Below, in pieces: positions 7,607 to 62,385 of a DNA stretch of 64,000 bases. The translations under genes and the position numbers were made by a program. The stretch's first letter is position 1. Every line of letters starts with the position of its first letter. The DNA comes from Cyanophora paradoxa CCMP329. Its lineage: Eukaryota; Plantae; Glaucophyta. Location of the stretch: assembly GCA_004431415.1 (NCBI GenBank), contig QPMI01000469.1, forward strand, positions 124,001-188,000. The letters run 5' to 3'. The notes under the pieces are model-generated. The model searched no databases. It worked only from the letters and a program-made list of their open reading frames with translations, and was not told the DNA's origin.

Positions 7607-9960
7607 ACTGAGCCCTGCACTCATGAGAAGAATATTTGGGTCTTTAGGCTTAACGAGTTTCATTGGCAGGTTTATGAGAACATGATTCGGTGATAACGCG
7701 AAAATCAGCAACCAGTATCGTGCAGGGTGTTAAAGAAGCCCTTGTAGCCTTGAACCAGTGAAGAGATGATCAACTGAGCCCTGCACTCATGAGAAGAATA
7801 TTCGAGCCTTTAAGGCTTTATTTGTCGGATCATGAGAACATGATTTGGCGATATCGCGAAAATCAGCAACCAGTGTCGTGCAGGCTGTTTCAGAAGCCCT
7901 TGTGGCCTTGTCCCGTGAAGAGATGATCAACTGAGCCCTGCACTCATGAGAAGAATATTTGGGTCTTTAGGTTTTAAGAGTTTCATTGGCCGGTTCATGA
8001 GAACACCAACGCGAAAATCAGCAACCAGTGTCGTGCAGGCTGTTTCAGAAACCCTTGTGGCCTTGAGACTATGAAGAGATGATCAACTGAGCCCTGCACT
8101 CATGAGAAGAATATTTGGGTCTTTGAGGCTTTATTTGTCGGATCATGAGAACATGATTCAGTCCCAACGAGAAAATCAGCATCCAGTGCCGTGCAGGCTG
8201 TTTTAGAAGCCCTAGTGGCCTTGAGCCCGTGAAGAGATGATCAACTAAGCCCTGCACTCATGAGAAGAATATTTGAGCCTTTAAGGCTTTAAGAGTTTCA
8301 TTGGCCGGTTCATGAGAACACCATTCGGTGATAACGCGAAAATCAGCAACCAGTGTCGTGCAGGCTGTTTCAGAAACCCTTGTGGCCTTGAGACAATGAA
8401 GAGATGATAAACTGAGCCCTGCACTCATGAGAAGCCTTGAAGAATATTCAGATTTGTCGGATCATGAGAACATGATTCAGTGCCAACGAGAAAATCAGCA
8501 TCCAGTGCCGTGCAGGCTGTTTAAGAAGCCTTGTGGCCATGAGCCCGTGAAGAGATGATCAAATAAAACCTGCACTCATGAAAAGATAATTTGAGGCTGA
8601 TCATGAACATGATTTGGCGATATCGCGAAAATAAGCAACCAGTGTCGTGCAGGCTGTTTCAGAAGCCCTTGTGGCCTTGTCCCCGTGAAGAGATGATCAA
8701 CTGAGCCCTGCACTCATGAGAAGAATATTTGGGTTTTTAGGCTTAACGAGTTTCATTGGCCGGTTCATGAGAACACCATTCGGTGATAACGCGAAAATCA
8801 GCATCCAGTTTCGTGCAGGGTGTTTAAGAAGCCCTTGTGGCCTTGAACCAGTGAAGAGATGATCAACTAAGCCCTGCACTCAGGAGAAGAATATCTGGGG
8901 GTTTCGTCTTTAAGGGTTTCATTGGCCGGTTCATGAGACCATGATTCGGTGATAACGCGAAAATCAGCAACCAGTGTCGTGCAAGCTGTTCTTGAAGCCC
9001 TTGTGGCCTTGAGCCCGTGAAGAGATGATCAACTTAGCCCTGCACTCATGAGAAGAATATTTGGGTCTTTAGGCTTTAAGAGTTTCATTGGCCGGTTCAT
9101 GAGAACACCATTCGGTGATAACGCGAAAATCAGCAACCAGTGTCGTGCAGGCTGTTTCAGAAACCCTTGTGGCCTTGAGACTATGAAGAGATGATCAACT
9201 GAGCCCTGCACTCATGAGAAGAATATTTGGGTCTTTGAGGCTTTATATGTCGGATCATGAGAACATGATTCGGTGATAACGCGAAAATCAGCAAACAGTA
9301 TCGTGCAGGGTGTTAAAGAAGCCCTTGTGGCCTTGAACCAGTGAAGAGATGATCAACTTAGCCCTGCACTCATGAGAAGAATATTTGGGTCTTTAGGCTT
9401 TAAGAGTTTCATTGGCCGGTTCATGAGAACCATTCGGTGATAACGCGAAAATCAGCAACCAGTGTCGTGCAGCTGTTTCAGAAACCTTGTGCCTTGAGAC
9501 TATGAGAGATGATCAACTGAGCCTGCACTCATGAGAAGAATATTTGGTCTTGAGGCTTTATATGTCGGATCATGAGAACATGATTCGGTGATAACGCGAA
9601 AATCAGCAAACAGTATCGTGCAGGGTGTTAAGAAGCCTTGTGGCCTTGAACCAGTGAAGAGATGATCAACTTAGCCCTGCACTCATGAGAAGAATATTTG
9701 AGCCTTTAAGGCTTTAAGAGTTTCATTGGCCGGTTCATGAGAACACCATTCGGTGATAACGCGAAAATCAGCAACCAGTGTCGTGCAGGCTGTTTCAGAA
9801 ACCCTTGTGGCCTTGAGACAATGAAGAGATGATCAACTGAGCCCTGCACTCATGAGAAGAATATTCAGATTTGTCGGATCATGAGAACATGATTCAGTGC
9901 CAACGAGAAAATCAGCATCCAGTGCCGTGCAGGCTGTTTTAGAAGCCCTAGTGGCCTTGT
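7607..9960. repeat. Tandem array, about 15 copies of a 137-167-bp unit (mostly 158 or 166 bp), two interleaved subtypes
   Basis: GCCCTGCACTCATGAGAAGAAT (or a close variant) recurs at about 7611, 7777, 7935, 8091, 8250, 8416, 8568, 8705, 8871, 9037, 9203, 9361, 9521, 9674 and 9841. Confidence 0.97.
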
Positions 9961-15390: not shown

Positions 15391-17556
15391 ATGCAGGCTG
15401 AAGGTTCAGATTCTGCTCGCATTGTGTCCCGCGGTTGGCTGATGCCCGTCTTTAGGTGATGTTCATTCGGACGAGAGTGGCGGTCTGATAAGTGGGCGGG
15501 CTTCCTTTCCAGCGAAAGGATCAACACAGAGAGCAAGTGAGCGGGCATCAAGCCGCCGCATGGCGGGTTTCGCGTTTTCCAGCATCCGTGCGTTTGAGCG
15601 TTCCGTAGGTACTGGTGATGCATCTGTCTCGGATCCTGGAACGCCGAGGAATGGTGAGCGTATACGTATATCGGCCACGCTGGGAATGGGGCGCGTTCCC
15701 TTGATGCTGACCGCTCCCGCTTCTACCGCCCTTCGTAGCTCGCCCCGACATCGTTGATGCTGACGTCGAAGGCGCACGTGTTGATGCTTCGACATGCACT
15801 GAACTTCAGTCGAAGCTTCCTGCTAGTTGTGGTGCGCGGTGCAGCACCATCTGTTTTGATTCGGCTTCGACCGCTTCCGCAGCGTCAATAGTTGCGACAC
15901 CAGAGCAAGAGGAGGAGGCTGTCGAGCGGCGGAAACGAATGAGCGAATCCATCCTCGCGCGGCGTCAGAAACTTAAAGAGCTTGCTGTTGCAACTCCTCA
16001 AAGGCAAAGGCCCCTCTTTCCGGCACAATCTCCGAAAAAGGCATCCAAAAGGCCGCTCGAAACGTGCGTGCGTTTTGTTTCTGTCCACGCGTTTTTTGTC
16101 TTATGTTGTCTTCAGTCCTGGCTTCCACCAGGCGTCCAGGTGCGGCAAAGGACAATGTTCAGACCCATTAAGACGGTCTTACATAATTTGTTAGCACGGC
16201 GGGTGCTCCGTATGCTGCTGGCCCAAGCTCGGCGGACAAGAAAGTCATTCGCGAGAGCCCCACCGTGAACAAGCCCCATCGCTGGAAACGTGCATGCAAT
16301 TCCCTCTCTTGATTGCTCTCATGTCTTATGTTGTCTTCAGTCCTGGCTTCCACCAGGCGTCCAGGTGCGGCAAAGGACAATGTTCAGACCCATTAAGACG
16401 GTCTTACATAATTTGTTAGCACGGCGGGTGCTCCGTATGCTGCTGGCCCAAGCTCGGCGGACAAGAAAGTCATTCGCGAGAGCCCCACCGTGAACAAGCC
16501 CCCATCGCTGGAAACGTGCATGCAATTCCCTCTCTTGATTGCTCTCATGTCTTACGTTTTCGTCAGTCCTGGCGTCGATCAGCCGTCCTCGTGCGGCTTG
16601 AAACCGTTTCTGAACCGTTCTCATAACCTCTCATGTCTTGCTGTAGATCGGAGGAAGCTGCAGTTAAGTCGTTTGATACCGTAACCGGCCCGCGAGAACA
16701 AGTTCCGTTTGGAACCACATATACAAAGAGCTTCACGGACGAGTACCCAACGGAATCAGTCCCTTCAGGTAGTGATCGCTGGTATAGGGTGCGAGCATGA
16801 TTTGTTTACTGGTATAGGGTGCACCACTGACTCCATTTTGGATTTCAGGACTGCCATTTGGACTTCGCGGCAGCGCATCGGCTGAAGAAATTGATAATAC
16901 ATGATGAAGTCGTTCTTTTCCTAGGTCTCAGTATGATCGAAGCGAAAGAAGTGTTCAACAATCTCGCAACCCGCGAACCAATGAAGAACCGCCAAATCAT
17001 GAACAACCGCGATCGACCCTGGAAGCTTTGTTTTTTGCCGATTGCTCAGGGTGACAATGTCGTGCATGGTGCCACGGGGCAACACTGGAGTCTTCTCGTC
17101 TTCGACAGGGTCAAGAAGCAGATTCGCTGGTTCGACTCGCTTCAATACACGGTGGATTCTGCATTGCGATCGTCTCTTTCAGCGGCTTTCAATGAATTTT
17201 CGATCGTGGACGAAACATCTGAGGGTTGTCTTCAACGCGATTCGTACCAGTGTGGACCCTGGATCGTGTTTTTCATTGACTGTGTCGCTCGCGAAATCGA
17301 CCCAGGGGATATCTCTCACTGGAAAGAAAGCGAGGACTTTAAAAACAACGTGAAGTTCTTGAAGGGAACGTCAGGCACGAACAAGAACTTCATGGACATG
17401 AAGCGGCAGGAATATCAGAAGGTGTTTGTTGATGAATGTCCTGGCGAGGTTCCGTCGGGTCCGTCTTTGTTTGATACGTTTTGTTTTGTCGCTATGTATA
17501 GTGATTCCGTACTCAACAGGTGCTTCCGTTGCGGATTTCTTCGAGATTACATGTGA
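15391..17556 (+). CDS. SENP8/NEDP1-like C48 cysteine protease (putative deNEDDylase), copy 1
   Basis: Exon 16849-17556: LCFLPI...GQHWSLLVFD...IRWFDSL...LQRDSYQCGPW, giving the His/Asp/Cys triad plus oxyanion Gln in C48 order and resembling SENP8 (FLPIN..GSHWSLLV). The upstream small exons and the start are approximate. Confidence 0.75.
16097..16575 (+). repeat. Tandem duplication of a ~225-bp two-exon unit inside the protease gene
   Basis: TGTCTTATGTTGTCTTCAGTCCTGGC occurs at 16097 and 16322, with a diverged third start at ~16548. Each unit keeps its splice sites. Confidence 0.9.
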
Positions 17557-17754
17557 AACACCTGTCCCGTGCAGGCGAGGCGTGGCCGCTCCATGTTCTT
17601 CTTTGCTTCACTGAATTGAATATAGCGCAGAGTGTACGACAGCGACGAAGACTCCTAGCTCGACAGCGTCCGGAAAGAGCCAGTAGGACCTGTTTTCTTG
17701 AATTTTCGAGAAAGAGAGAGAGATTTCCCTAAAGAGATATGCTTCGCCTGACCT

Positions 17755-18923
17755 TTGTTTTTTCTCCCAAGATCGAGGGTGGAAAACAAACAAAGCAGCG
17801 ATGGGGCGGGAGTTAGGTGGCGGGCTTGGTTTTTCAGAAAGCGCCGACTTTTATCGTACGTTGATTGGGAATTGTTTTGGAGCATATATCTCACCTTACT
17901 TGTAAAGTGGTGCAGCGAAGAAAAAGAGCGTGTCAAGGCTTCGATGATCGGTCCAATTAATGACATTATTGTTGAGTCCACGTTCCCCGTTTTGGGATTT
18001 TTGATAGTCTCTCGCGAGCATCTTCGGAAACTTCGCGGAACTGAATGGCTGGACGATGAGATTGTCAACTTTTACATGGGCCTGCTTGCTCGTCGGAACG
18101 CTCTTGCCCACCCACCGCTTCCTTTGAAAGTAAGATTCAAGTGATTCATTCTTTTCGTCTGGGCGATGCCGATCGATCTCTTCTTTTTTGCACCAGTGTC
18201 ATATATGGCATTCGTTCTTCTACACGCGATTAACAGTGCCTACGTATGATTTCAATAGGGTGAAGGATTGGACGGTGGATAAGGTGTTCATTCTCAAAAT
18301 CTTGAGTTTTAATCGAATTCGAAATCACGCGTGCAGGTGGACATCTTCTCAATGGACCGCGTTATCTGCCCAATAAACCTTAACAGCACACACTGGACAT
18401 TGGCCGTCATTGACTTCAACGAAAAGCAGGTGTCCTGTACTTTCTTACTTTTTTTGTTTAATTTCAATCTTTCGTGTTTTCAGATTCTATACTATGATGG
18501 ATATTACGGAAGTGGGGCAGTCCAATGTGCAGTGTGCAGTACAGTTCTTTCGCTCCAAGAAAACATTGATTTGTATTCCAGAACTTAAGGCGCTGGCTAC
18601 AAGATGAGCACAACCACAAGAAAAATGCCCCTCTGGATCTCTCGAATTGGCGTGTTGTGGCACCTTCATTGAACAGGGTCCCACTACAGGTATTTGCCTC
18701 GAAATCCGAGCTTATCAATAATATTCACTATTTTTTACAGACCGACGGGAACAGCTGCGGAGTGTTCATGTGCTTATTTGCTGATTATGTCTCAACCGGT
18801 GATGAATGCTTCATTGTCGGCGACGGACTGGACGCTTTCAGCCAGAAAGACATGAGATACTTCCGGGAGCGTATAGCGCTAGAAATTATACGGGGGCAGG
18901 CCTTCTCGGAGCGAGCCCTGTAG
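17755..18923 (+). CDS. Ulp1/SENP1-type SUMO protease (peptidase C48), six coding exons resolved, 5' end uncertain
   Basis: Phase-0 introns at 18130-18196, 18284-18336, 18430-18483, 18532-18581 and 18690-18740 give WLDDEIVNFYM...SFFYTRL...VKDWT...ICPINLNSTHWTLAVID...ILYYDG...PLQTDGNSCGVFMC...FSQKDMRYFRERIALEI, with an intact H/D/C triad and Q. Confidence 0.95.
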
Positions 18924-18975: not shown

Positions 18976-20790
18976 GCGCGCAGCGCGGGCGGGGGGCGCG
19001 GGCGGGGCTGCACGGACTCGCTCGGCGTCGGCGGACGGCGTCGGCGGCGTCGCGGCGTCGTCCCCTCGCGTTCAGGGCGCCCGCCGGCGGCGCCGCGCGG
19101 CCTCCTGCGGCGGGGCGCCGGCGCGCAGCGCGGGCGGGGGCGCGGGCGGGGCTGCACGGACTCGCTCGGCGTCGGCGGACGGCGTCGGCGGCGTCGCGGC
19201 GTCGTCCCCTCGCGTTCAGGGCGCCCGCCGGCGGCGCCGCGCGGCCTCCTGCGGCGGGGCGCCGGCGCGCAGCGCGGGCGGGGGGCGCGGGCGGGGCTGC
19301 ACGGACTCGCTCGGCGTCGGCGGACGGCGTCGGCGGCGTCGCGGCGTCGTCCCCTCGCGTTCAGGGCGCCCGCCGGCGGCGCCGCGCGGCCTCCTGCGGC
19401 GGGGCGCCGGCGCGCAGCGCGGGCGGGGGGCGCGGGCGGGGCTGCACGGACTCGCTCGGCGTCGGCGGACGGCGTCGGCGGCGTCGCGGCGTCGTCCCCT
19501 CGCGTTCAGGGCGCCCGCCGGCGGCGCCGCGCGGCCTCCTGCGGCGGGGCGCCGGCGCGCAGCGCGGGCGGGGGCGCGGGCGGGGCTGCACGGACTCGCT
19601 CGGCGTCGGCGGACGGCGTCGGCGGCGTCGCGGCGTCGTCCCCTCGCGTTCAGGGCGCCCGCCGGCGGCGCCGCGCGGCCTCCTGCGGCGGGGCGCCGGC
19701 GCGCAGCGCGGGCGGGGGCGCGGGCGGGGCTGCACGGACTCGCTCGGCGTCGGCGGACGGCGTCGGCGGCGTCGCGGCGTCGTCCCCTCGCGTTCAGGGC
19801 GCCCGCCGGCGGCGCCGCGCGGCCTCCTGCGGCGGGGCGCCGGCGCGCAGCGCGGGCGGGGGGCGCGGGCGGGGCTGCACGGACTCGCTCGGCGTCGGCG
19901 GACGGCGTCGGCGGCGTCGCGGCGTCGTCCCCTCGCGTTCAGGGCGCCCGCCGGCGGCGCCGCGCGGCCTCCTGCGGCGGGGCGCCGGCGCGCAGCGCGG
20001 GCGGGGGCGCGGGCGGGGCTGCACGGACTCGCTCGGCGTCGGCGGACGGCGTCGGCGGCGTCGCGGCGTCGTCCCCTCGCGTTCAGGGCGCCCGCCGGCG
20101 GCGCCGCGCGGCCTCCTGCGGCGGGGCGCCGGCGCGCAGCGCGGGCGGGGGGCGCGGGCGGGGCTGCACGGACTCGCTCGGCGTCGGCGGACGGCGTCGG
20201 CGGCGTCGCGGCGTCGTCCCCTCGCGTTCAGGGCGCCCGCCGGCGGCGCCGCGCGGCCTCCTGCGGCGGGGCGCCGGCGCGCAGCGCGGGCGGGGGCGCG
20301 GGCGGGGCTGCACGGACTCGCTCGGCGTCGGCGGACGGCGTCGGCGGCGTCGCGGCGTCGTCCCCTCGCGTTCAGGGCGCCCGCCGGCGGCGCCGCGCGG
20401 CCTCCTGCGGCGGGGCGCCGGCGCGCAGCGCGGGCGGGGGGCGCGGGCGGGGCTGCACGGACTCGCTCGGCGTCGGCGGACGGCGTCGGCGGCGTCGCGG
20501 CGTCGTCCCCTCGCGTTCAGGGCGCCCGCCGGCGGCGCCGCGCGGCCTCCTGCGGCGGGCGCCGGCGCGCAGCGCGGGCGGGGGGCGCGGGCGGGCTGCA
20601 CGGACTCGCTCGGCGTCGGCGGACGGCGTCGGCGGCGTCGCGGCGTCGTCCCCTCGCGTTCAGGGCGCCCGCCGGCGGCGCCGCGCGGCCTCCTGCGGCG
20701 GGGCGCCGGCGCGCAGCGCGGGCGGGGGCGCGGGCGGGGCTGCACGGACTCGCTCACTCGCTCGGCGGCGGGGCGCGCGGCGCGCGGGCG
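18976..20790. repeat. Extremely GC-rich tandem array, about 12.5 near-identical copies of a 144/145-bp unit
   Basis: GCTGCACGGACTCGCTC recurs every 143-145 bp from ~19007 to ~20740. Units differ only in G-run length. Confidence 0.98.
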
Positions 20791-21441: not shown

Positions 21442-24400
21442 ATGGCCCCCAAGCGCGCCAGGAGGGCGGGGACCACTGGGCAAGAAGAAGGATCCGGAGC
21501 CGCTAGCGCTGCAGCCGCTCCGGTTTCAGCCGCTCCGGCTACTCCGACAGGTATTTGAGTTTTGGCTTCCAGCTTTACAGTTCTCATCCATAACCAACAC
21601 CCGCAGCCCCTGATACGCGTGCAGAGGCAGCCCCTGATGCAGCCCCAACAGCCGTTCCTCCATCAGGTATTTGGGTGAACGCCTAGGGTGCCAGATTAAC
21701 AACCGTTCTCATCCGTAATCAGCACCCGGTGCAGCGCCGGTAGTCCCTGCAGCCGTTCCTTCACCAGGTATTTGAGTTTTGGCTTAGATCTGCCAGTTTT
21801 GGCCAGATCTGCCAGAGCCCCGATGCAGCCCCGGCAGTCCCTGCAGCCGTTCCTTCACCAGCTTCTCCTGCGTTACCAGCAACCGATGCAGCCCCGGCAG
21901 TCCCTGCAGCCGTTCCTTCACCAGGTATTTGAATTTTGGCTTTCGGCTTCGACTCTTAATCACCGAGTGGCAGAACAAGAGAACCCTCTCCTGCTGAATC
22001 CTCTAAGGGCGTCGGAACCTGAAGAATTGGGTGTTGATTCTAATCGTGCTGCCGGTAAAGGAATTCCAGCTATGGAGCATTCATGAACCCTTCATGAATT
22101 CATGGAGAATTCCGAGCAGATAATGCCCTCAAGCAGGAGCATGAGTTTCTCAATGGGATTGGAACTATTCCGGAACAAGAGTGGAGTCCTGCCTTCAAGC
22201 AACTCTCCGAACTTGCGGTCTGTCTGTTTGCAGATTGCTGTCTTTTAATCAGTTAACTGATATTAATGTTTTCCAGAACCTTTATTGGTCGATGCAAGCC
22301 CTGTATAATGATCTTTGTACGGGAGTCGAGAAAGCCCCCAATCTCACCGATTTTATCTTCCTCTTCCAGCAGTTCGAGAGCCCCCGCGCGGTCCACCTGG
22401 TCATCGACGGGAAGGCCTTCGATGCCCTTGAAAAATTTCTTGATGATGTTGATATCGTGGACGAGCCTGTCAAAAAAACACGCGATCAACTTCGAAACAA
22501 GATCCCGCTCCTGAGAAGATTGTCTGATGAATGCACGGTATCTTTGCTCGATGAACTCGCTCTTCATCGTTCGCTTCTCAATTGCACCTTGCTCAGATGC
22601 TGCCCGTGTCGCAATGGTTGTGTGTTAACTTGATGGCCGAACAAACGGAATCATCTCAAAGCATGGTCTCCCTACCCTCTGGTATAGCATTCGTCAAACA
22701 TCTGTTTGTCAAGCGTGATACAATCTGGACTCTACCTATCAGTCCAGCGCTTTTGAGAATGAGTCTGACAGAGTTCCGCGAAAAGCACGGTTCCGTTTCG
22801 AAAGCCATTGAGCTCTCTTTGATGGACTACGAAGAGTTGTGGGACGCAAAAATGAAGCTCTCAAAGCTCAGCGGTATGGTTTGTGTTTTTTGCACCGAAT
22901 GTTTACGTTAATGATTATTCCGAACGCAGGTGAGCTCGACGTCCCCCTTTCACCTGAGGAATGCAAGGAAGTTGATGGCTTCAATAACGTCGCGGCGGTC
23001 AAAGAGGCAGTTGTGAGTTTTGCATCGCATTGCATTGCATCCCACTTTTGTTTAATCATGATCAGCTGGCGATGCGCCTTTTTCAAAGTGCGGCTGTCCA
23101 GAACTCCCGACCGTCCGAGTGGAAGGATGTTTACGACAAATGTAACCCGCTTTCGGAGGCTCTGAACTCAGCAATTGTCTACAACATCATGAGGGCTGTC
23201 GACCTTGCTAGACTTCCAGGGCTTGAACGAACCGCTTCAAGGTTCCCTGAGGTCTTGAAAACCGTCAAGGTGAGGTGTTGAAAACCGCTGCTCTTTTTAT
23301 CTTGGGCTTCTGTCATCCATCGCATCTCACAGTTAACTTGTTTGCAGGAAACTCCTGTGTCGCAGCGAATTCCAATGTGGTTCTTCGCGTTTCTGTCTTC
23401 GGAGGTTTCGATTAAAGATCGCCACGGCTTAATTGCATGGGACTTTGAAGCTGTCGAAGAGTTGGATTCAGCTCTTGCACGCAAGGGCCAAGGAACAGAC
23501 ATCTTTCAACTCTGCGTCGATTTGCAAGAGTCTGAGACTTCTATGTGTTTCCCAAAATTTCGGCGGAAGATTGAGTTCTTGCGGAGTATGCAGAAAGATG
23601 TAAGCCGGTCGTCGAACCTATCAATTCTCTACTCCTTCAGCTTATTTCGCTTTCCCCAGCAGGACTTCGATGTCTTTCGCGATCAAGACTTCTTGTCAGC
23701 CCCAGCGAGAGACAAATGTAAGAAGAAGTGCACTGCATTTACTCAATTCTCAATATCCGCGCAGGTATGAATTTCCTGCAGTCACTTCATGACGAATTGG
23801 GCGAAAAAACACGAAAGTCTTTTCTTCTCCCTCCAAAACGGAAGTCTCCTGTTCTTCGTCTTCTTGAAGAGCCACGAAAGTCTCACCGGGACAACCTCAT
23901 GTTGTCTCTGAACCGTTTTGACGTGCGCTTTATGAACCTTTTTACTGAAACTTCTATTATTTATGCGCCACCAGAGTCTTCTCGCTCTTGCGTACATGTG
24001 TCTTAAAGAGGGCAATCCAGCATTTTTCGACAAGTTAATCGAAGATTCACTCGAATATGCATTGTTGAACAGCAATCAGGCCGCGGTGTCGTTGCCCGAA
24101 TCTTTGGAATTTCTGGAATCATTCCAGTATGCTCTGGTTGGCGAGCAACGGGCGATGTTCCTCCAGCACTTCGGAAATCTCGTGCAAGAATTCGATTCTT
24201 TTTTGGATCCTATCTTGGAACCACTACGAAAGGCTCGAGACGATCTTTTGGATTGTTACAACACGAACGTCAAGTCTGCCTTCCAGATGGTCGGAATCTC
24301 CCTGGTTCGGGAACAATTCGACAGTGATGACTTCGAAACAGTCGACACGAAGATCTCTTCAAGAGTCTCACAATCCCCGCCCCCTGGGATCAAACCTAAG

Positions 24401-27400
24401 CTCAAGGCGGAGTTTTCGAAAGCTCGTGAGATGCTTTCGAAAAAGTATGAGGTTTTCAAGCCCTTTTATCAACAAGTATGCGTAAACGAAGAATTGTACA
24501 CGCGCGGGCTGATGCACGTGCGCAGTGGAAGAAGGAATCTGCAAAAACTTTCGAAAAAATGAAAGCTTCGGTTCATATTTTTCTGCCGGACATCTTCTTC
24601 GAATTCGCTCAGCTTCCTCTCGGACTCGGACTCTTGCAAGAGATGAAATCCCAATTACAGGGTGTATACCCGTCGTCGAGTCAGGAATTTTCGGTTTCCA
24701 AGAAGTGGTATCAGGACCACAGCCCAGTTGTAAACGACGCTCTTGAATTTTCCAGAACTATGGCTAGATTCGACGAATTAGCTGCACGAGTTCTCGAGAA
24801 CAGTACTGGTCCACAAGGTACTTTATCTTGCTTGTTTCCTTCTCTGGAGGTCTGACAGCCAATCAGATGAAAGCGAAGGAGGACCGAAAACAGAGGAGGA
24901 AGTAGACGAGGATGAGGATGAAGTTGACATTGATGAGGACTCGGATGATGGCGATCGCTGGAATGCTGCGGAAGCCGAGATGCTTCTCCACGATGCTATT
25001 CCAGGCCGAGTCATCAGGCAACCCATCGGTGCGCATTTTATCTTTTCGCATGTTTAGCACATGCCGAAATTCAGACGTTGTTTACGCAGACGTGGAAACG
25101 AACAAGAAGTTGCCAGCAGCGTTTCAATTGCGGTCGGAGTTTTTGCACGACGACGAAACCCTGACCGAGACAACCAGCAATTGCGCTTTGTGCCGACAAG
25201 AAGTTGATGGCACGAACAAAAACGGCCTCGTTCCTTGCGAGGTTCTTGGTTGCGCGCACAACGTTTGCATTAAATGCATTGACGACCTGAACGACCGCAA
25301 AAACACGTGCGGCGGATGCCACGATGAGGGCCAAGGCTTCGGAAGCAAGCAAGTCGCGTTCTACAAGAACAGACGTTCACCAGGGCCCCCTGGCTTTAAA
25401 TTCAAATGTGCGGTTTGCATCCTTTGTGCGCGCTTAACTCCGACTAAGCGTTTGTTCTTAGGCTTCTCGTGCCGTGGCCTCGGCTTCTCTGCTGGCTTTC
25501 GAGTGAGCGGAGAACTACTTCAAGGTTTTGGAAAGTGCACTCCCGGAACTTTCCAGGCTCAGCTCTCCAGTGACACACACGACGCGCGCGAGCACATCGT
25601 GGCTGTATCATACGACTCTGGCTGGTATCTCAGTTCTTGTCTCAAACCGGTGTTTATCCCATCTTTCGAGGTATATTCCCCATTCTATGTATTAGCGCCT
25701 TTTATCCAGCTGACGTTTTATCCAGTCACCTGACGTATGCAATTTCGCTTTCATGGCGACGAAATACATAATGCCAGGCGTCGCGCTCCTGTCTAGTGCG
25801 TGCACATCCTTCTTTCAAAGTTTCTCTTGAATTTCTTACTCTCTGCAGTATCGGGACAAGATTCTGCAGATTTTGCGTCTGCGAAAGATAAGATGCAGAG
25901 TTTTTACAGAACCGAGTTTGCAAGAACATCCGCGCCAGTTGCATCGGTGGACATTGACAAATTTGTGCGTCCGATTGGCCATATTCTCCGTCCCTTAACG
26001 TTGTGGCACAGCTGAAATACCACATTGTCACCTATCCGAACATCAACGTGCGCGGAGTCTCGAGTGAAGGGGCTGTTCAAGCCTTTGCAGCAATCGACAA
26101 CAAAGCAGCCTTGAAGTTGATTTATCCAGAGGGCAAGAAATCTTTGCACTGCAATCCGATTGAAGCTAAAGATTTGAAGCGTCGACTGAGACAGCTGGCG
26201 GAACTTGCTCCCCAGTTCCTTGTTGTTCACGACCGGTTGTGCGTGTTTTTTTCTAGATCTCTAGATCTCTAGATCTCTGGTTTTTACTTGAGTCACAGGA
26301 ACCCGAACACGGCCCTCTCGCCAGACGTCGCCCGGCTCAAATTCAAGTCGAATTCGGAATCCGCTCCTGTTGAGAGACTCATCACCCGCGGCCTAATCGC
26401 GTGCGTGCTTTGCGTGCGGCATTCAGGTATGTATTCAGAACAAAAAAGCAGTTCTACGCACATTATCCGTCCTGGAGAAATTCTTCGCTTCAACTGGGGT
26501 GATATCTGGGAGTTCGCTGGTCTTGCATGCGAGTTCAGAGATCGTTGTGGCCCGTGCGTCCTATTCAATTCCGTCCAATTCTGTACTGTTCAGTTTCGGA
26601 GAACCACAGATGGATGAACCGATCTATGGCTTTCGGTGAACTTGGAGTTGTGCGTGAGCCAAAGAAAGATGAAGAGGGCGGATTCGAAGACCCGCCGATG
26701 AAATCCATGTTCGAACTCTTGGAGGATCACAAAAGTGGCGGTAATCTGTCGTATTGTATGTTTTTTGCTTTTTCAATAACATTATTTTCTATCTTTTAAA
26801 CGTGACAGCTTTTTACGTCAGGGGGCTCGCGATCAACGAAGGATGTCACTATGGGGAAAGTTTGGACTCTTGCTGATGGCGTTGAGGTCATTTCACCCGT
26901 CACTAGAGAAACAGTGATTGAGTTCGCCTCGATGAATTTCGGTAAGTTCGCCTGTGCGTCGATTTCGGTTTAAATACCCTTTACATACTCTTACAGCTCA
27001 AAACTGGAATTTGGACTTTGCACCCTGCGTTGCTGTTCGAGATGAGGATACCGTCCCGCCCATTCGCGTTGCTGAACCTGTATCCAAGAAGGCCAAGCTG
27101 GACACTCGTCCGTCTATCTTTTTACCAATTTTTACCAATTTTCCGTTTGTTAACGCCTAGAATCAGAACGATCCTCAGTTGGTGCAAAGCAACGTAAGTC
27201 TTGTTGTTGTCTTGAAAGCGTTTCTCTAACACCAGACAGCTCCATCGAATAATCCCCCTGTCGCCGGACCGGGCCGTGCAGGAAAACACCGTGAGTTTTT
27301 TTGTTTTTGGAAGATGCAGCGTAATGTTGAATTCGATTCGGCAGCTACAGCTTATGACAAGTTAAAAGAGAGTGAACCACCACCGGCGGGCCGAGGCGGT

Positions 27401-27454
27401 CGGGGGCGAGGCGGTCGAGGGCGCGGCGGTCGAGGGCGAGGGAATCGGCAGTAG
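21442..27454 (+). CDS. Large multi-exon protein with an ADD-like (ATRX/DNMT3-type) PHD finger and C-terminal RGG tail
   Basis: Starts MAPKRARR (21442) and has many short introns, a helical middle and an acidic patch at ~24900. The finger reads CALC..GLVPCEVLGCAHNVCIKC...FKCFSC after removing intron 25408-25461. The last exon encodes GRGGRGRGGRGRGGRGRG with TAG at 27452-27454. Not every junction was verified. Confidence 0.65.
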
Positions 27455-27466: not shown

Positions 27467-30400
27467 TTACATGTAAAACGGATTTTTGCATCCAGGCTTG
27501 CAGTGGCAAGTACGTGGCGGAATGCGTGGGGTTGGGGCAAACTGTGAAGAACTGTGAACTGTGAAGAGGGATAGAAAACGACCAGAAAGTACCTGGTAAT
27601 GCCATGTGATCTGGTCACCTGGATAAATATCCTTGATAGCGATCATTGCATATCGTTCAAAACCGTCAACCACCCAGCACTCCACAGTCGTGTTGGGATC
27701 GCATGAGTGATTGGCCAGAGCGGGCCAGCCGCAGCTGAACATGTCGATATAAATGTAGTCTCCTGCAGATGTCCGACTCTTGGTCAACATAAGGTAGCAA
27801 CAGTTCTGGTGTTTTCGCCAGGATTCAACGTTCTTGCCAGGAACTCGTTTCCCCCAGATCTCGCCAAGAAAAGCACCAGCTCGAATGCAAAAGTCCGCCG
27901 ACTTGTATTTCGTGTAGAACCTGTCGAGACAGACGCCAACGCCGCAGCCCGGAACGTCTATGACCTCCACAGACACGGATCGAGAGAATCCCGGGTGAAT
28001 GGAGAACTGTCGGTTGGAGCATCGGCTCAAATTGGACCGGAATAGACAGCAGTTCGACGCGTTGCATTGGATGCGACATCCTGCATTCAATTGACAGCAT
28101 GTACACGAAGACTTGCACTTTCGCTTCTCTCCGCTGTCCATGGCTGCACAACAAAACCAGTTATAATATTCCGAAAACGGAGTTACAAAAGATACGCACG
28201 CAAAGAAGACGAAGCAGTTATCTTTGGGATCCCGCTTTTCCGCTTTTGTTCCATACAAAGGATAGTGGCACAGCCGTTACATTTCGCGCCGTCGCTGTAG
28301 TCGTCTCCAACCTCAAATCCTCTCGAAAGATGCTGGCCTTCCGACACCGCACAGGACATACGCGCAAAGTTTGGAATTTCGTACGCAGATGAGTTCGGAA
28401 TATTTCCAGTACTGAAAATCCGCTCGTTGGCAAGAAAGGTGTCACGATTGAAGCTGATCGAGTTTGTCAGAATCCAAGATATGAGCGACTCGAGAACGCA
28501 CAATTCCCAAAAGGTTTGTACTGTTGCTTTGATTTTGTTCTGAGTACTTGACTCCAGAAAGTCGGGTGAAGCACCAGAGTTTTGAGGCAAAACGAAAGAT
28601 CCGAGTAAATGTTGTCCTGCTGCGTTCAAAAAACGGTCGACGTCGATACGGCTTTGGAACTGGAAACGCTTTTTGGCGTTATCAACGATTTTGAAGAGAT
28701 CGCCCATCACGTCGGAATCCGGCCACAGTTGCTCAAAAAAGGACGCGTGAAAATGATGAGTGAATGAAGCAATAAGGCCAGCCTGTAAAATGCGTAAGTA
28801 CGCTCAAAATTTCTCCATTTGCAAAAAGGATCGTACAGAGTGCGCATCGTACTGAAGTGGACAAGAAACTTTCAAGTGAAACGTTCGCTGTGATTTTCGT
28901 TTCGGTGCCGGAAGTCTCTCATAAAGGAGCTCCTGCATTTGTCGCAAGTGGGACTCAAGTCGAGGGTTGGCTTTATCGAGCGAGCTCGTGTAGAAGCACC
29001 AAACATCATTGTAGGAGTCAGTATTCTTGACGAAAAAAACGTTGCAAGGCCACCTGTCACAAAATCAAATTTTGCACGGCAAACAGGCCAGGAAAGCACG
29101 ATTCGTACCATTGCATATTGAAACAAAGAGAGTAAGCGATGCCGCGAATCCCTGTCTGGCATGCCGCTGCTGTAAGTTCTAATTCCATGGATGAGCTTGC
29201 CATTGGAGAATGTTGCAATTCTAGACTTCCGCAGAATTTCATTCCTCGTTTCTCGTAGCGCTCGCAAAGACCCCATAATACGTTCGCTTTAGCGCGCGAA
29301 AAGTCAAATTTGCGAATGTGCGTATCAGAAAGGCGTAAAGGCGTAAGATAACCGCACCTTGATCAGACTCGGATGCGCTGAACATTCGCTCGTTGCGGCT
29401 TTGCCGAAAATAGAAGGTTTTCTGCTCCTTGACCTGGCTTTCTTCTATCCGGTCATCAAGATGAACAGGTCTTGCCTTGTCGCCGTCGATGGGCGCAAAC
29501 CGTAACTCATAAATGAAAACTGTTTCAAGTTGCCCGTATCGTTCGTAGGACGCGAGAGGATCTTGGGAATGTGAAGCCCGGACAGGTTGCGCGTCGACCA
29601 ATTCAAAGTCACAAAAGCCAGCCAGATCAGCTCGATGGGTTCTCTTGGATCCCGAAAACCGTTTGTGAACCGCAATCTGCATTCCGAATTTGTACGTTTG
29701 TGAGCAAAGAAGCGTGTATATCCTCTGAAAACAATAGCAGTGTGTGAACCCTCAGCCCAGGTTTCGCGGTTTGCGCAATACGGGTTGCGATATCATCTGT
29801 AATGTGTGGAAGAAACTCCTTGTTGTTCATCCAAATATGGGTTGCACTGTAAATACGAGTCAAAACACGAATGGAGTGCGAATGGGACAAAAATCACGGA
29901 CTCTTTGTAGTCGAATTTTGCACCGTCGCCGACCTCAGGACCACACAGCACGGACATCTCACGCACAGGTGTGATGAGTCGTTCAGCAGACTCCTGGTCA
30001 ATCTTATAATGATACATGAGCAGCGACGAGACCTGCCCTCCGTGATGTCAAAATACGACCTGGATCAAGGACTGATTGTGTCAAAGAACCTGCTCTGCGA
30101 AGATGCGGTTCAACGTTGAAGCGTCGTCAGAGTACGAGTTCTTCCGATTGTCGTACGTGTTGACGATTTCAAGAGAACAGAGTTTCAGAGACGCTGCCGC
30201 ATCCAGATTGGTGGCAAGAAAATCCGCATATACCTAAAGACAAATAAGATATATGAACGCACATGCGAACAAAGGTTCACAAAAAAGTGCGCACAAGCCT
30301 GCAAACGCTCGCGTTTGCCCCGCCAACATCCACGAACACGGTGGCGTTGTGTCCTTGTGCTTCCAAGTCGATAAGACGACCACAAATGACCGAGCTTACG

Positions 30401-30700
30401 AAACCTTGATAAACCTCTCCGAATTTGACAGAAGCATTGCCAGGACCCCACAGATTTTTTACCGCAGGACGAAGCTGAGCTTCTTTTGCAAAAGCGTCCA
30501 TGATTTGTTTAGCGGTTTTGACCCGTGCGCTTGCTTGTCGTTGTTCAGACTGGTAAATGTTTTGGTTTAAAGGACTCATTAACGCCTTTATAGCAATTCC
30601 GAAGTCCTGCAATTGGGGATCAGAAAATGCAATTATCAAAATGCAATGCAACGTCAATTACCTGTTTAGCTTCATCGGTAAAAGTCGGCATGTTCTCCTG
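27467..30700 (-). CDS. DOT1-like methyltransferase / PWWP-like / AWS-SET-postSET fusion; further 5' exons probably reach ~31751
   Basis: Ten GT-AG introns (30607-30661, 30234-30294, 30033-30089, 29847-29901, 29677-29749, 29287-29357, 29054-29108, 28783-28836, 28144-28199, 27542-27592) give one open frame. DOT1 motifs: VKFGE, VFVDVGG, SLEI, GDG, IWMNNKEF, KPGLRIAVHKRF. PWWP-like: MQWWPCNV. SET: GVGV, FLGEIWG, LANHSCDPN, DIYPGDQITWHY, and post-SET CHCKPGC. Confidence 0.85.
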
Positions 30701-32082
30701 CGAGTCGAATTAGACATCAACCATTCCCCTGCAACCAGTCTGCAACCAGTCATACCCTCGCTTCGGACGTCGTTGCTGCATCCTGGTTCGCAGCCAGCGA
30801 AAATTCATGCAACCAAAGTTCCTACGCCAGAGCGAGATAAGAAGAATAGACGAGATAACCTGTCGAGATGAACAAAAAACTGTACCTGTCGCCTGGTTGG
30901 TGTTGAACGGCCTTCAACTGGTGTCTGAACCCGGGATGTCGAGGCCTATTGCGAGTGGTTTGCTGCCAGTAAGCGCCCGGACCCAATGAGACGGCTGCGC
31001 ACGTTTTCCGACCATGACGACGCGGAATCGATGGAATCCCCATTTTCACAGGTTTCAGAGGCAGACACAGAGGCTTGCACACTCATCATCTTTGATTCGC
31101 ATATATCAATCTACGATACGGTCAGAAACACCGACACGAATACAAACTGTCTATCAAATTCGGTCAACTGACCGCCTGACGGATTGGTTTTTTCTGGCTA
31201 GGATTAGCTTCGTCATCGCAGTTTCGTTTTCTGCCATTCGAACTGCATGCGCCAATAAGAAACTCGCTACATAGAGAGGCATATCGCAACTGTTGGAGAG
31301 TAGCTGCACCGCGCTCGGCTTGTTCTGCGAGAATTCAGAGAGAGCAACCATTGACATACCAAATAGAGCCACCTTGAGAGCTCAGGCTGAACAGGCTGTC
31401 AGAGGATGTTCTGCTCTTTGGCATTGATCCACAAGCGGCTGACAACGTGTAAGCGCCGTAGACACAAGGCGTTCTCGGCGGCGGCGCACCAGGCTCGGAA
31501 TCGGTCGAACTTTCACACAGAGAGGCGTAAGCAGAGATTCTCTTAAGTACCACGACTTTGCACAACGACCCAGTTGATCCGAAGTCATGACCATCAACCG
31601 TTTCGGAGACAAACGCCAGCAGATCCTCGGGCGCCGCAGTCTGCCCGCCAAACTTGCGCTTAAAGCTGTCCAGAAGTCCTCTCTTGTACATTTCCAAAAG
31701 ACCGAGCGATTGTACAACATCGCGGAAGGCGCGCTCTCGATGAATCTGCATCGGACGCAGGAACTAAGAGGCAGTTTCGCAAACCGGGCGGGTGAGCGCG
31801 GTGGATACACGTGCACGTGTATACTCACCGTGGCCGTCGACATCCGCGTCCAAGCCTTGGACGCGTCCAACCCAAACAGCGCTTTCGTAGCTCGGACGCG
31901 TCCAAGCTTTGAAAACTTGCCGAACAGCGCTTTTGTAGCTCGGAGAGATCTAGAAGGTCTTCAAACTGAAAAGTGCGATACCCCTCTAGAGAGGTCTGTC
32001 CTTAGTCTGACACTCGAGCTCCCCGCGCCGATTCTATAGCATCACTGTAGCCTGTGTCAGCCTGTTTGTAGCCTCCTTCAGC

Positions 32083-45886: not shown

Positions 45887-46702
45887 AGAATGTGGTGTAG
45901 AAATTGCAAAGTGCTGTTTTTCTCGACCGGAGCCAGCATCTGCGACCACCACCATTATTTGAGGGTGGAAATAGACTTCGAATTCTGCGACCGAGCCATC
46001 ATTTCCGGGGAAGAGTGCCGGGCGAACATTTATCTTTCTTTTTCTGTTAGTCAAGATGCTAATCATGTTCGAAAGCACCCTAGAGCGGAGCAGAGGCTCG
46101 TCTGGCCTTCCATTCTCGAGGACGAGGTCCGATGCCCGACCCAGTGACCGAGCCATCATTTCCGGGGAAGAGTGCCGGGCGAACATTTATCTTTCTTTTT
46201 CTGTTAGTCAAGATGCTAATCATGTTCGAAAGCACCCTAGAGCGGAGCAGAGGCTCGTCTGGCCTTCCATTCTCGAGGACGAGGTCCGATGCCCCACCCA
46301 GTGACCGAGCCATCATTTCCGGGGAGGAGTGCCGGGCGAACATTTATCTTTCTTTTTCTGTTAGTCAAGATGCTAATCATGTTCGAAAGCACCCTAGAGC
46401 GGAGCAGAGGCTCGTCTGGCCTTCCATTCTCGAGGACGAGGTCCGATGCCCCACCCAGTGACCGAGCCATCATTTCCGGGGAGGAGTGCCGGGCGAACAT
46501 TTATCTTTCTTTTTCTGTTAGTCAAGATGCTTATCATGTTTGAAAGCACCCTAGAGCGGAGCAGAGGCTCGTCTGGCCTTCCATTCTCGAGGAGGAGATC
46601 TCGCCTTGAGATGTTAAAAATGTCCGCAAACGAGAAACCTTTTGAAATACAAAGAAATGCATGAATATCCACATTGATGCCAAAACGTAAGCAAGACGGA
46701 CC
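45887..46702 (-). repeat. Inverted copy of the right-end region: about 4 x 157-bp units plus flanks
   Basis: GACCGAGCCATCATTTCCGGGG occurs at ~45989, 46146, 46303 and 46460. Both flanks are diverged reverse-complement matches to 53845-53899 and 52794-52899. Confidence 0.95.
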
Positions 46703-46872
46703 CATTCTCGAGCCTCTTTCGCGTGAGAGATATTGAATTTACAGCGTCCTAGGATAGTCGCCAACTGCATGAGCAACCCCTGCCAAGCTTTCAGTGCCCG
46801 CGACCAAGCTTTCATTTCCGGGAACTAAGGAAGTGCACGGGAAGAGCGTCTTTCTCATGAGAGATATTGAAA

Positions 46873-48872
46873 TTATGCGAGATATTGAATTAACAGCGTG
46901 CTAGGATAGTCGCCAACGCTTACGGTAAAACGCCCTTCAACCCAGGGTGACACAGCACGACGCGCTGACTCCACAAGCTCCTTGGACACGACCAAAGAGA
47001 CCTCAAACTGTCTTGCTCTTTCTTTCGAAATCCCCCGCAACGCCGAGAGTGCAGAAAGGCGTGCCAATGTCCCGTCTTGCCATGGGTATTTGACACTTAG
47101 AGATTCGAGTTTCGGAGATGAAACGGCTGCCTGCGCGTGCAACACGTTGTGAAATCGCCAGTCGAGATCAGCACCAAGTAAAACATACCTGCAGGTACCA
47201 CGGCGGAACGTTGACCGTCGTTAGCTTTGTTAAAAACTGCTGCGACGCGAGGATGACGTCTTCAAGAGTTGTTGATATTATGTGGTCGTCGCGCGTATGC
47301 ATGGATATCCTCATTACGATCTCCAGGGACTTGAGAGATGAACTCGATCTAAACCCCGTAGTAGCGGATCGGAGAACACCCGCTCCAGAATTCGAATCCA
47401 AAGCGGTCTGTGATCGCGGTGTACGTCAAGAATCTTCCAAAAAACTGCCCAGCAACAACCATTACGCACGTTAAACTCGCACGTGAGTCTCATACTCCGA
47501 AGTCTTGTAAGTGCGCCCAGCTCCGCCAAACCAAAACCGGAGTTCTCGGAAACCTGAGAGGAGTAAGCATCTCGCAAATCAAATACTTCTCGCAGCAAAC
47601 GGACCGTAATATCCAACTCTGAAAGATTCAAAAAACGAAGAATAGAAGCAATCGTACGTGGGCTTGCTGCTCCGAGAACGATTTCATCATACGTGTTGCA
47701 AGCGAATCTCAGTGACTTCAAAATACTGGGCTTAAGAGCCTCGAGCGCCTTATCAACGGATTGCGCCTCAGCAGCGTTGTGTGCTCCACAAATGGTCGCT
47801 TTTAAGTCCGTCAAGGGGAGCGGCAGTAGTGCTAGCAGGGATTCCCCTCCACGAAACCCGCTGTGAAGCCGCTGCAGCGCTGGCCACAAACGTGCCATTT
47901 TCTCCTGCGCATTCTGAAATTAGACTGCATCTGAGCATTATCATTTTTCGATTATAATAATGCTCACGGTAAGAGCGGCATCCATGAAATTCGCAATTTC
48001 TATTCCATGCAATTCCGGAGGAATCACAGCGCTGATATCCTCCAGAGTGGGAACGCAGCCTGGAACAGCTGCATCCACGATATCTTGCAAAAGACGTTCT
48101 GAGCCGACCCGTAACGTACGGACGGGAGAACTGGTGACCGACGACAGGAAATCGATTGCAACTCCAAACTCTCGGGGGAATTCAGTTTGCCCGCAATATC
48201 CTAGGAGGCCTGCACCGAAGAACAATTCCTCAGGGCCGCTTGCGGGGGGCTTCGTCAAAGCTGAAATAATTTCTGCCATTCAACGGTCAGGCAACGGAGA
48301 TGAATTGATTGCGCTCGTGACGCACTCTGTATGAGGCGAACATACGACTCTGCGGCAGACTCTGCCATTATACACGGACACCACCGAGGATTAACGTTCA
48401 TGACGGCTGAGCCCAGAACGTCATATATCTCGAGCCGCCTACATCCAGCAAACATTCGGGTCTCCACGAGTGCCACTATTCGATTGTGCTGCCGGGAAAG
48501 GGCTTTTACGATCCGCTGTTCGTCCGAAACCGCGCTCGCGTGCGGACGTGCACGCCACGGCGCTGCGTTTGTGCTATAAAAAGAAGACAATTTGCTCTCC
48601 GCGGCGGGCGCGGTACGCTCGCACAAGATGTCTACGTCAATTTGCAGCCGTTCCCACAGCACGTCTCGGACGAGACGGCCAAGGCGCCGATTCAAGCGCC
48701 AGAGCTGACACGTATCGTATGCCTCCATAGCTTCCACGTGGCTAAATATGCGCACGACAAGATCGTCGGGGAGCATTGCGAAGAAGTCTCTCCCGTCATC
48801 GGACGAAGTGCTAGCTGAAGCGCGCTCGTTCTTTCGCTTCGCTCGAGCGCAGAGCTGCATTGAGAGCTGCAC
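46873..48872 (-). CDS. F-box plus LRR-like protein (multi-exon and/or frameshifted)
   Basis: FFAMLPDDLVVRIFSHV...LWRLNRRLGRLVRDVLWERL is an F-box. Downstream LRR-like segments include WPALQRLH, LKSLRFAC, LSELDIT, LTRLRSMRL and PKLESLSV. Confidence 0.75.
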
Positions 48873-48933
48873 CGTACAAGTCCGTCAGACTCCGTCTGTG
48901 CTGTTGGGGTACCGTACTTTACAGACCGTCCGC

Positions 48934-49840
48934 ATGGACGTCGACGAGCCCGCCTACCGGCCGCAGTGGCAACCGAATCTTGTCACGCGGACATCATCGT
49001 GGGGACGTGGTGCGTGGCACTGTGCGCCTGCAGTTGCCGCGCTTTGAATTTGAATCGCCTTGCAGAGCGCACGGCGTCGCTGCTGGCGCTGCTGAAAAGC
49101 AACGACCTGAGCCTCGCCGATCTGCACAGCTCGAGTGGGAAGTGGAATGATTGGCGTGCGAACAAAGAGCTCGACAAGCTGATCGATCGCATCGCTTCCG
49201 AGCACGATCTAGAAGGACTTGACTCCATCCAGCTGCTTGGTCACAAAACCGACATTCCCGAGCATCAGGCACGCCAGCGCATGCATATGCAAGCTTGCGC
49301 GGCGCTTCTCCTTGCTGACCTCTACATACTTCTAGCTCCAGCGCCTGCTCGCGGTCATCACGAAGCAAGCCAGTAAGCTCTGCCAATTGCGCGCTCTTCG
49401 CTGCCACGGCTGGGGCTTGGACGACGCTTCGTTTGAGGCGTACATCCTGCCGATTCTCGGAATTCCGGGGCTCTGTATCCGTGGTGTAAATGTTGGCGAG
49501 AATGACAAGGTACGTTAACGTTGATCATGTGGTGATTATGTCACAGGTACGTTGATTGGGTATGTCACAGTTGACGAACGCGGCTGGCGTGGCGTTTTTT
49601 AAGGCCCTTCAAACGGCGCAAGACTGCGTTGGCTTCTACATCGGCGAGGGAAAGCTCACTCGGCAGACACACAAAGCTATTGCCCTTATCATCTCCGAGC
49701 GATGGGCCGCCCTTGACGGGGACTTGCGCAAGGAGGTCAAGCTCTGCCAGCCAGCCATCAGTTTCTTCCGAATTTCAACTCGAAAGCGTCAACTTCGTCC
49801 GCGAAAATGGAAGGCCAGCCGAGCCCCTGCCCCGGTTTAG
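48934..49840 (+). CDS. Small RNI-like leucine-rich-repeat protein, multi-exon
   Basis: The spliced reading LRALRCHGWGLDDASF...IRGVNVGENDK|LTNAAGVAFFKAL...FYIGEGKLTRQTHKAI fits LxxLxLxxNxI(T)xxG...AL periodicity. Confidence 0.5.
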
Positions 49841-52853: not shown

Positions 52854-53029
52854 AAAGGTCTCTCGTTTGCGGACATTTTCAACATCTCAGGGCGAGACCA
52901 TTCATCATTTCATTTTCATTCTTTTTGATTCACAAAACGCAGTGATGACGAAGGGTGCTGAACAATCACGCAACATCGGGAGGCTGTATCACGTAGTCAT
53001 TCAAGGTTGATTACGAACAAAATAAACAT

Positions 53030-56800: not shown

Positions 56801-56910
56801 GCAGAGCGGGCCAACAACACCAATAATACCCTCGCCGCGACAGCCGCTGGCCCCGTCGACGGACGCTGCGGACGTCGATGCGCCGGTGGAGAGTCCGTGG
56901 ATTCTACATG

Positions 56911-62331: not shown

Positions 62332-62385
62332 GTTGACGTCGTTGGTCTCTGAGTGATTCCGAAGACCGTCGATGAAGAGAACGCA

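Follow-up and report, generated by a model that had tools for sequence, protein, structure and literature searches.

We report a putative gene on the minus strand of a 64,000-nucleotide stretch of Cyanophora paradoxa DNA (referred to below as the window) whose spliced product would join a diverged DOT1-family domain to a SET domain of the Set2/NSD/ASH1 type. Our preferred reading, to which we give a probability of about 0.55, is that this is a single gene specifying a two-site nucleosome methyltransferase with weak or altered activity. DOT1 is commonly presented as the histone lysine methyltransferase that lacks a SET domain, and the pairing of DOT1 with SET has apparently not been described before. 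The initial annotation proposed a DOT1-PWWP-SET fusion in one polypeptide. The DOT1 and Set2-type SET domains, together with one plausible spliced frame, are retained here; the PWWP domain is not.

The complete gene model (positions 27467..31751, minus strand) has 16 exons and 15 GT-AG introns (48-73 nt) and encodes 1,135 aa. Its well-supported core is the 878-aa part from the ATG at 30691 to the TAA at 27469-27467, which is stop-free on removal of ten introns and requires no indel. This agrees with the frame first recognised (~30700 to 27467, with ten GT-AG introns of 51-73 nt and no indel). The introns of the core, all GT..AG on the minus strand, lie at 30661-30607 (55 nt), 30294-30234 (61 nt), 30089-30033 (57 nt), 29901-29847 (55 nt), 29749-29677 (73 nt), 29357-29287 (71 nt, with an AAG acceptor, linking the DOT1 part to what follows), 29108-29054 (55 nt), 28836-28783 (54 nt), 28199-28144 (56 nt) and 27592-27542 (51 nt, in-frame, before the post-SET). 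Five additional candidate introns upstream lengthen the frame to an ATG at 31751. The parse of this Ser-rich N-terminal extension (exons 1-5, 30698..31751, minus strand) is uncertain: the coding score of exon 1 favours the model frame, intron 31002-30946 is weak and, upstream of 30697, several parses are possible, some of which outscore the model.

Using splice scores alone, the best open-frame parse of the real strand scored -32.8 (11 introns), compared with -122.9 for the opposite strand and -87.9 for the best parse among 40 Markov resamples, 29 of which gave no parse. The open frame therefore exceeds chance. When the 401 possible GT-AG pairs are ranked by splice score, the top 34 include ten of the 15 model introns, and intron size and signals match those of 16 introns (47-66 nt) that RNA contigs reveal in the adjacent gene. 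Across the DOT1 region the open frame is not unique: an alternative blind parse is also open but gives 0.2 bits with a DOT1 profile, compared with 21.1 for the model.

The DOT1-family class I methyltransferase domain would occupy residues ~296-556 (exons 7-11; 29494..30522, minus strand). Against our own DOT1 HMM, built from 80 sequences, the spliced N-terminal domain scored 18.0 bits (single-sequence E 8.5e-8), the best of 300 shuffles reaching 5.1. The DOT1 assignment made at the outset is thus upheld, with a match that appears only on splicing: exons 9, 10 and 11 give -1.7, 7.9 and -1.9 bits alone and 21.1 bits when joined. A comparison with DOT1 using hhalign covered 197 columns (score 37.1, probability 70%, E 4e-5); the best of 40 shuffles scored 20.9 and a profile of other class I methyltransferases 15.0 (probability 0.3%). 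Human DOT1L is recovered by a bacterial DOT1 seed profile (E 2e-21). In the hhalign alignment a YGE-like motif, motif I, the post-I Glu and the motif-IV Asn occur in DOT1 order, the placement of the post-I Glu differing between MAFFT and hhalign. The domain carries FGE, the motif-IV Asn470 and a motif I in which the first Gly is kept and the second and third are Ala, where 77/80 and 79/80 homologues have Gly; it does not contain an intact GxGxG SAM-binding loop. A Pfam scan of single exons gave no match to exons 7-11. For exon 7 the top ESM Atlas match was DOT1 (0.93), with 158 shared features, fewer than the 170 typical of true members, and this serves as a lead only. Membership of the DOT1 family, as a diverged member, is supported by these sequence comparisons.

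The second catalytic domain (27470..28141, minus strand) had been described as an AWS-SET-postSET of the Set2/NSD/ASH1 type with an NHSCxPN motif, and Pfam, PDB and Foldseek all bear this out. The SET ORF scores 49.5 bits with PF00856, and its best PDB sequence matches are ASH1L, NSD3 and SETD2. The predicted model folds as a SET domain; the top Foldseek matches are NSD1 and SETD2 structures, with MLL1 SET structures scoring nearly as high. An AWS, a SET and a cysteine post-SET are all present. AWS cysteines 26, 31 and 41 and Asn 43 (ORF numbering) are invariant in the alignment, and GxG, NHSCxPN and the catalytic Tyr are retained, as are three post-SET cysteines. For the 51-nt intron ahead of the post-SET, the spliced form outscores the retained form. 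Other conserved positions are changed: the RFxNH Arg (present in 95% of 43 relatives and equivalent to SETD2 R1625) is Ala, the EYxGE Tyr (88% of the same relatives) is replaced by Phe, Ile or a gap depending on the register, and Trp is found at the SETD2 F1664 site. The Arg to Ala, Tyr to Phe and Trp changes are common to P0001, the closest relative (47% identity). Such sharing is more suggestive of a trait of the family than of decay, and it points to a SET subfamily, so far unrecognised, whose product specificity is altered. Judging from the nearest relatives, H3K36 is the most likely target.

The linker between the two domains (~370 residues) has no recognisable reader domain. The segment proposed as PWWP (28921..29143, minus strand) contains a WWP-like motif only, which coincides with the best alignment position of an NSD-type PWWP profile. 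Our own PWWP profile, a small one built from five NSD-type domains that a very remote barrel could escape, gave -1.6 bits, a score that many of the 300 shuffles equalled or surpassed; hhalign gave a probability of 1.5%, with 2/40 shuffles higher; and exons 12 and 13 have no PWWP match in Pfam or PDB. The QWWPC motif across a splice junction had been taken as support for the splicing. It is not independent evidence for the model because it depends on the choice of donor 29108; with the in-frame donor 29099, to which the splice model gives a slight preference, WWPC is broken. As the PWWP reader is not supported, neither is the 'read-write' part of the proposal. The 194-aa exon 14 (28200..28782, minus strand) is open in the model frame and ends in CxxC. 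It has no Pfam match beyond E 0.09 and no Atlas match, and a single-sequence AlphaFold model (pLDDT 36) is uninformative.

Transcription and splicing as one mRNA, giving one polypeptide, seems quite probable from the sequence, since the DOT1 match requires splicing and a blind parse of the linker outperforms all 300 resamples. This parse, which used no protein information, picked introns 29357-29287, 28836-28783 and 28199-28144 exactly and, for the fourth linker intron, acceptor 29054 with donor 29099 rather than 29108. The real score was reached by 0/300 resamples for either the whole linker or the critical 600 nt, although resamples do not mimic two real adjacent genes. An arrangement of two packed co-directional genes is unlikely: here the 71-nt segment 29357-29287 would be retained, a DOT1-like gene would end at the resulting stop (29241-29239) and a SET gene would start in exon 12. 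The AAG acceptor at 29287, singled out in the initial annotation as the weakest junction, speaks for it: it is indeed atypical (RNA-seen introns have YAG in 16/16 cases and AAG in 0/16) and scores -3.0, compared with a leave-one-out minimum of -2.0. Yet the blind parse selects this intron, and one-gene parses that avoid the AAG acceptor exist with slightly lower scores. The donor at 29357 is strong (its 8-mer is identical to an RNA-seen donor of the adjacent gene), and the segment includes a branch-like TTTGAC and has no internal AG, a property of just 11/1,929 exonic windows; these features also argue against two genes. In-frame ATGs at 29242, 29203, 29188 and 29116 are candidate starts for a separate SET gene, and exon 12 is the linker exon with the weakest per-base coding score (-10.2 bits; second open frame -14.4). 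The very compact locus, in which the stops of the DOT1-SET gene and its neighbour are 12 nt apart, would also suit packed genes, but at most ~120 nt separate the retained-intron stop from the last exon 12 ATG, leaving almost no space for a terminator and promoter. In five RNA-like runs no contig crosses any DOT1-SET junction. RNA cover in these runs is absent from 28,312 to ~36,900, which is not a sign of silence. Two 151-nt RNA contigs, both from a single run, fall within exon 15; they are strandless and could represent the 3' UTR of the neighbour.

Both active sites deviate from consensus, and activity may be weak or altered because of these conserved-site substitutions in the two catalytic domains. 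We take G401 of yeast Dot1 to be the same motif I glycine as one of those replaced here. The available text of PMC4650758 describes yeast Dot1 G401A as partially active, which counts against a dead DOT1 half, and that of PMC9116022 reports that R1625 mutation lowers SETD2 stability and H3K36me3. It is also unlikely that we are dealing with one gene that has lost, or is losing, catalysis in one half or both, and that would be either a scaffold of the pseudo-enzyme kind or a relic, intact but silent, within repeat-rich DNA. The two Gly to Ala changes in motif I, the missing R1625-equivalent Arg and the lack of observed spliced RNA would fit such an enzyme; decay is opposed by 878-1,135 codons free of frameshifts and premature stops and by the SET changes shared with P0001, and a dead SET by the retained NHSCxPN, catalytic Tyr and post-SET cysteines.

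For the active two-site enzyme that we prefer, the DOT1 half would dock on the nucleosome face and methylate H3K79, and the SET half would act on a lysine of the tail, H3K36 being the most likely. Since the SAM loop and the lysine channel are altered, low methylation states would be expected from both. That both halves are active in this way is a tentative proposal, at somewhat less than even odds.

The window includes tandem arrays and a lower-GC, repeat-rich block with Ulp1 (16.8, 18.3-18.9 and 52.2 kb), F-box (48.3-48.9 kb) and zinc-finger genes. The convergent neighbour (21442..27454, plus strand) is a transcribed multi-intron gene with RNA joints and a RING-like finger; a JmjC identity, suggested by a motif resemblance, has no Pfam or PDB support. 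The odds are about even that the DOT1-SET gene is captured cargo of this block that tunes its own chromatin, with an effect that could be activating or silencing. It is more doubtful that a large mobile gene block encodes a bifunctional enzyme marking H3K79 and H3K36 in one pass, its retuned active sites setting the chromatin of the element. The fuller proposal of a DOT1-PWWP-SET read-write enzyme, by which a mobile element stays euchromatic through two active marks, is very unlikely. The position of the WWP-like motif and the typical transposon cargo genes in the repeat-rich context favour it; the PWWP scores at or below shuffles and the donor-dependent motif do not. No transposase was detected among the ~370 of 485 window ORFs scanned with Pfam, no element ends tied to the gene were found, and three DNA-like runs gave one unitig and no second copy at an identity of at least 80%. 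In brown algae H3K79me2 is associated with repression, according to the accessible parts of PMC13076208 and bioRxiv 2021.11.30.470311. Lack of a transposase and of a close copy, together with this repressive association, leaves the self-euchromatin reading weak and unproven.

The suggestion that the architecture was undescribed has held. No DOT1-SET fusion was found in print or among the fetched proteins, and none of 288 fetched loci (160 SET, 127 DOT1-like) has both SET and DOT1-like ORFs. Word-based searches for relatives among longer proteins found 0/148 candidates for the SET ORF and 0/135 for exon 7. The DOT1 profile gave two long matches among 7,989 proteins scored, neither with SET, and the same two only over 165 fetched proteins; Pfam detected no DOT1 in the 56 scanned of the 150 best SET relatives. 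Viral contigs included nothing closely related to the SET ORF or to P0001, and metagenome and genome scans returned generic SET genes only. If correct, this would be the first case in nature of the two histone lysine methyltransferase folds joined together. Such a protein would physically couple core and tail methylation and provide a direct tool for testing H3K79-H3K36 cross-talk; as mobile-element cargo, it would add DOT1 to the anti-silencing tools already known (SET, TET/JBP).

Compared with DOT1/DOT1L (KMT4, PF08123, including bacterial and giant-virus DOT1-like proteins), the N-terminal domain is similar in motif order, spacing and C-terminal strands. It differs in its low identity (~17% to the first sequence of the profile), in the two motif I Gly to Ala changes, in that Pfam misses exon 7 alone and in being followed by a SET domain. 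The SET part shares with Set2/SETD2, NSD1-3 and ASH1L (KMT3/KMT2H) the AWS cysteines, GxG, NHSCxPN, the catalytic Tyr and the post-SET cysteines; in contrast, it has neither the RFxNH Arg nor the EYxGE Tyr, carries Trp at the F1664 site, is preceded by a DOT1 domain and has no PHD, confirmed PWWP, SRI or WW. SET genes are carried as cargo by the Phytophthora transposons HarbingerS and MuDR, as described in the available portion of Kojima 2025 (PMC12730594). These resemble the present case as histone methyltransferase genes in mobile-looking DNA but apparently carry SET alone, and here neither transposase nor ends are shown. The expanded DOT1.2-1.5 subfamilies of brown algae are similar in that DOT1 occurs there in novel domain combinations, again in a non-model eukaryote; the part of PMC13076208 at hand names no SET fusion among them.

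Removal of 15 GT-AG introns of 48-73 nt from the minus strand at 31,751-27,467 gives a single frame of 1,135 amino acids, the DOT1-SET gene. The ten introns proposed in the initial annotation are the last ten of this model and give 878 amino acids in a single frame from the ATG at 30691. A splice model was trained on the neighbour, a convergent plus-strand gene (21,442-27,454) covered by RNA-like contigs that show GT-AG joints. The training set contained 16 introns (15 of the 25 RNA joints and one taken from the contig piece table), which are 47-66 nt long and, among the joints listed, all have YAG acceptors. By this model, 10 of the 15 DOT1-SET introns rank 34th or better among 401 possible pairs, and the other five come at 110-153. 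Because chosen introns can often thread an open frame, the best threading was also sought from splice scores alone, without protein information. This blind parse scored -32.8 on the real strand, -122.9 on the opposite strand and -87.9 for the best of 40 resamples. In the DOT1 region it took four introns differing from those of the gene model; its version scores 0.2 bits with the DOT1 profile compared with 21.1 for the gene model, and homology therefore settles the splicing there.

Singly, the exons of the DOT1 part (exons 7-11) have no match in Pfam or PDB; for exon 7 a DOT1 cluster ranked first in the ESM Atlas (0.93), which is a lead only. A profile of 26 bacterial DOT1-like proteins, which recovers human DOT1L at E 2e-21, is marginal on the spliced protein when used alone: it gives 6.8 bits overall and 5.4 for the domain, against 5.3 for the best shuffle. 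Adding 54 non-redundant domains, taken from viral contigs and from two long proteins, lifts the match to 18.0 bits, against 5.1 for the best of 300 shuffles. With hhalign the alignment spans 197 columns, every DOT1 motif falls in order and the probability is 70%; the score of 37.1 compares with 20.9 for the best of 40 shuffles and 15.0 for a control profile built from 20 other class I methyltransferases. These matches place the domain in the DOT1 family, as had been read from the sequence. The score climbs from 7.9 to 21.1 bits once exons 9-11 are joined, which supports both junctions between them. The domain retains Glu331, Asp360, Gly362 and Asn470, and has Ala at the second and third glycines of motif I, where 77 and 79 of 80 homologues have Gly. 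We take G401 of yeast Dot1 to be the middle glycine of this motif; the G401A mutant is partially active, according to an excerpt of PMC4650758.

The C-terminal domain matches Pfam SET (49.5 bits). ASH1L, NSD3 and SETD2 are its closest solved structures by sequence, and the top matches of its AlphaFold model (pLDDT 73.5) are structures of NSD and SETD2, followed closely by MLL1; these show the Set2/NSD/ASH1 type assigned in the initial annotation. NHSCxPN, the catalytic Tyr and three post-SET cysteines are retained. The RFxNH Arg (95% of 43 relatives) is replaced by Ala, the EYxGE Tyr (88%) is missing, and Trp occupies the site of SETD2 Phe1664. In the SETD2 chain this Arg lies 39 residues before the Phe, consistent with R1625 and F1664; R1625C lowers both stability and H3K36me3 (PMC9116022, in excerpt). 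The nearest SET relative among 1.84 billion representatives, P0001 (47% identity, single contig), carries the same altered Arg, Tyr and Phe1664-site positions, and the substitutions therefore look like a family trait. The predicted frame of P0001 breaks where the DOT1-SET gene has its last intron, which hints that the two share it.

Between these parts lies a linker (exons 12-14), joined to the DOT1 part by an intron at 29357-29287 (71 nt). Its AAG acceptor, already flagged as the weakest, scores -3.0 and is absent among RNA-seen acceptors, which counts against the intron, yet the blind parse picked it exactly, together with 29099-29054, 28836-28783 and 28199-28144. No resample (0 of 300) reached the blind-parse score, either over the whole linker or over the 600 nt surrounding the AAG acceptor (best resample -7.5, real -6.5). 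The donor 8-mer is identical to that of an RNA-seen intron. There is no internal AG, which is true of 11 of 1,929 equal-length exonic windows and of only 2 of 16 RNA-seen introns. Retention of the intron would bring a stop at 29241-29239, with in-frame ATGs downstream; one-gene parses that avoid the intron also exist and score slightly lower. A transcript check, suggested in the initial annotation, found no contig across any DOT1-SET junction in the public RNA-like runs; exon 15 contains two RNA-like contigs (151 nt each, unstranded). We put the probability that the DOT1 and SET parts form one polypeptide at about three in four.

A PWWP domain had also been proposed in the linker. This reading was dropped: the best alignment of a profile of five NSD-type PWWP domains, at residues 659-668, scores -1.6 bits, inside the shuffle range, hhalign gives 1.5%, and the motif is lost under donor 29099, which scores slightly better. 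Exon 14 (194 amino acids) received no assignment from Pfam, ESM Atlas or AlphaFold.

The DOT1 plus AWS-SET architecture is real and, as had been supposed, apparently undescribed: a single instance, with a predicted transcript, altered active sites and no reader domain. Full-text searches of the literature, judged mostly by titles and abstract openings, did not show the fusion; the architecture figure or supplement of PMC13076208 and the domain tables of bioRxiv 2021.11.30.470311 could contain it. Among the proteins and loci fetched by word-limited searches, none has both DOT1 and SET. Another protein, P0164 (995 amino acids; 14 cluster members, environmental assemblies), has two tandem DOT1 domains.

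The genomic context was drawn from the window and public runs. The window is repeat-rich, with arrays of 144-166 nt units. At 7607-9959 a unit of 158-166 nt, in which a 26-nt core is conserved, occurs about 15 times, and a tandem array of 144/289-nt units (18976-20755; 99% identity, GC 83-87%) directly follows a Ulp1 gene. Inverted 157-nt arrays at 45989-53824, with arms 98% complementary and about 6.5 kb between them containing F-box and Ulp1 genes, resemble a TIR element with tandem-repeat ends. Identical direct repeats of 238 nt (56910-63882; at 56.9 and 63.6 kb), 6.7 kb apart, enclose a minus-strand ORF of 601 amino acids (60712-62517) in which Cys and His residues cluster close to the end, possibly an LTR-type retroelement. 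Besides DOT1-SET, the window contains Ulp1, F-box and RING-like genes. Three Ulp1 (Peptidase_C48) domains lie at 16831-18923 and 52170-52853; the domain at 16.8 kb and that at 52.2 kb are paralogues (43% identity). The neighbour (21442-27454, plus strand) is transcribed and has 16 or more short introns; it encodes a RING-like finger and an RGG-rich end, and its C-terminal region looks like a JmjC/cupin domain in which no metal ligands are obvious, a likeness that finds no support in Pfam or PDB.

GC of the block is 45-52%, and touching contigs from the same runs (loose ends) appear GC-rich. The repeats, the cargo-type genes and this lower GC suggest mobile-derived DNA. Pfam, however, found no transposase in about 370 of 485 window ORFs, and three DNA-like runs (X1 and X2, from one sample, and X9, which may be the source of the window DNA) hold one identical copy and no paralogue at 80% or above. 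SET is already known as transposon cargo (PMC12730594, in excerpt).

We infer the transcript, substrates, activity and purpose of the protein. Most likely it would be a single protein with two SAM-dependent writer domains, the DOT1 half directed to H3K79 in the core and the SET half probably to H3K36 in the tail, the methylation output of both being reduced or shifted, and it would act on chromatin of the block in which its gene lies. The initial annotation had it depositing two active marks. Neither direction of its effect can be taken for granted, because, in the excerpts available, H3K79me2 accompanies reduced transcription in brown algae (PMC13076208) and is associated with transposons in Ectocarpus (bioRxiv 2021.11.30.470311), and yeast Set2 has mixed effects on silencing (PMC2724485).
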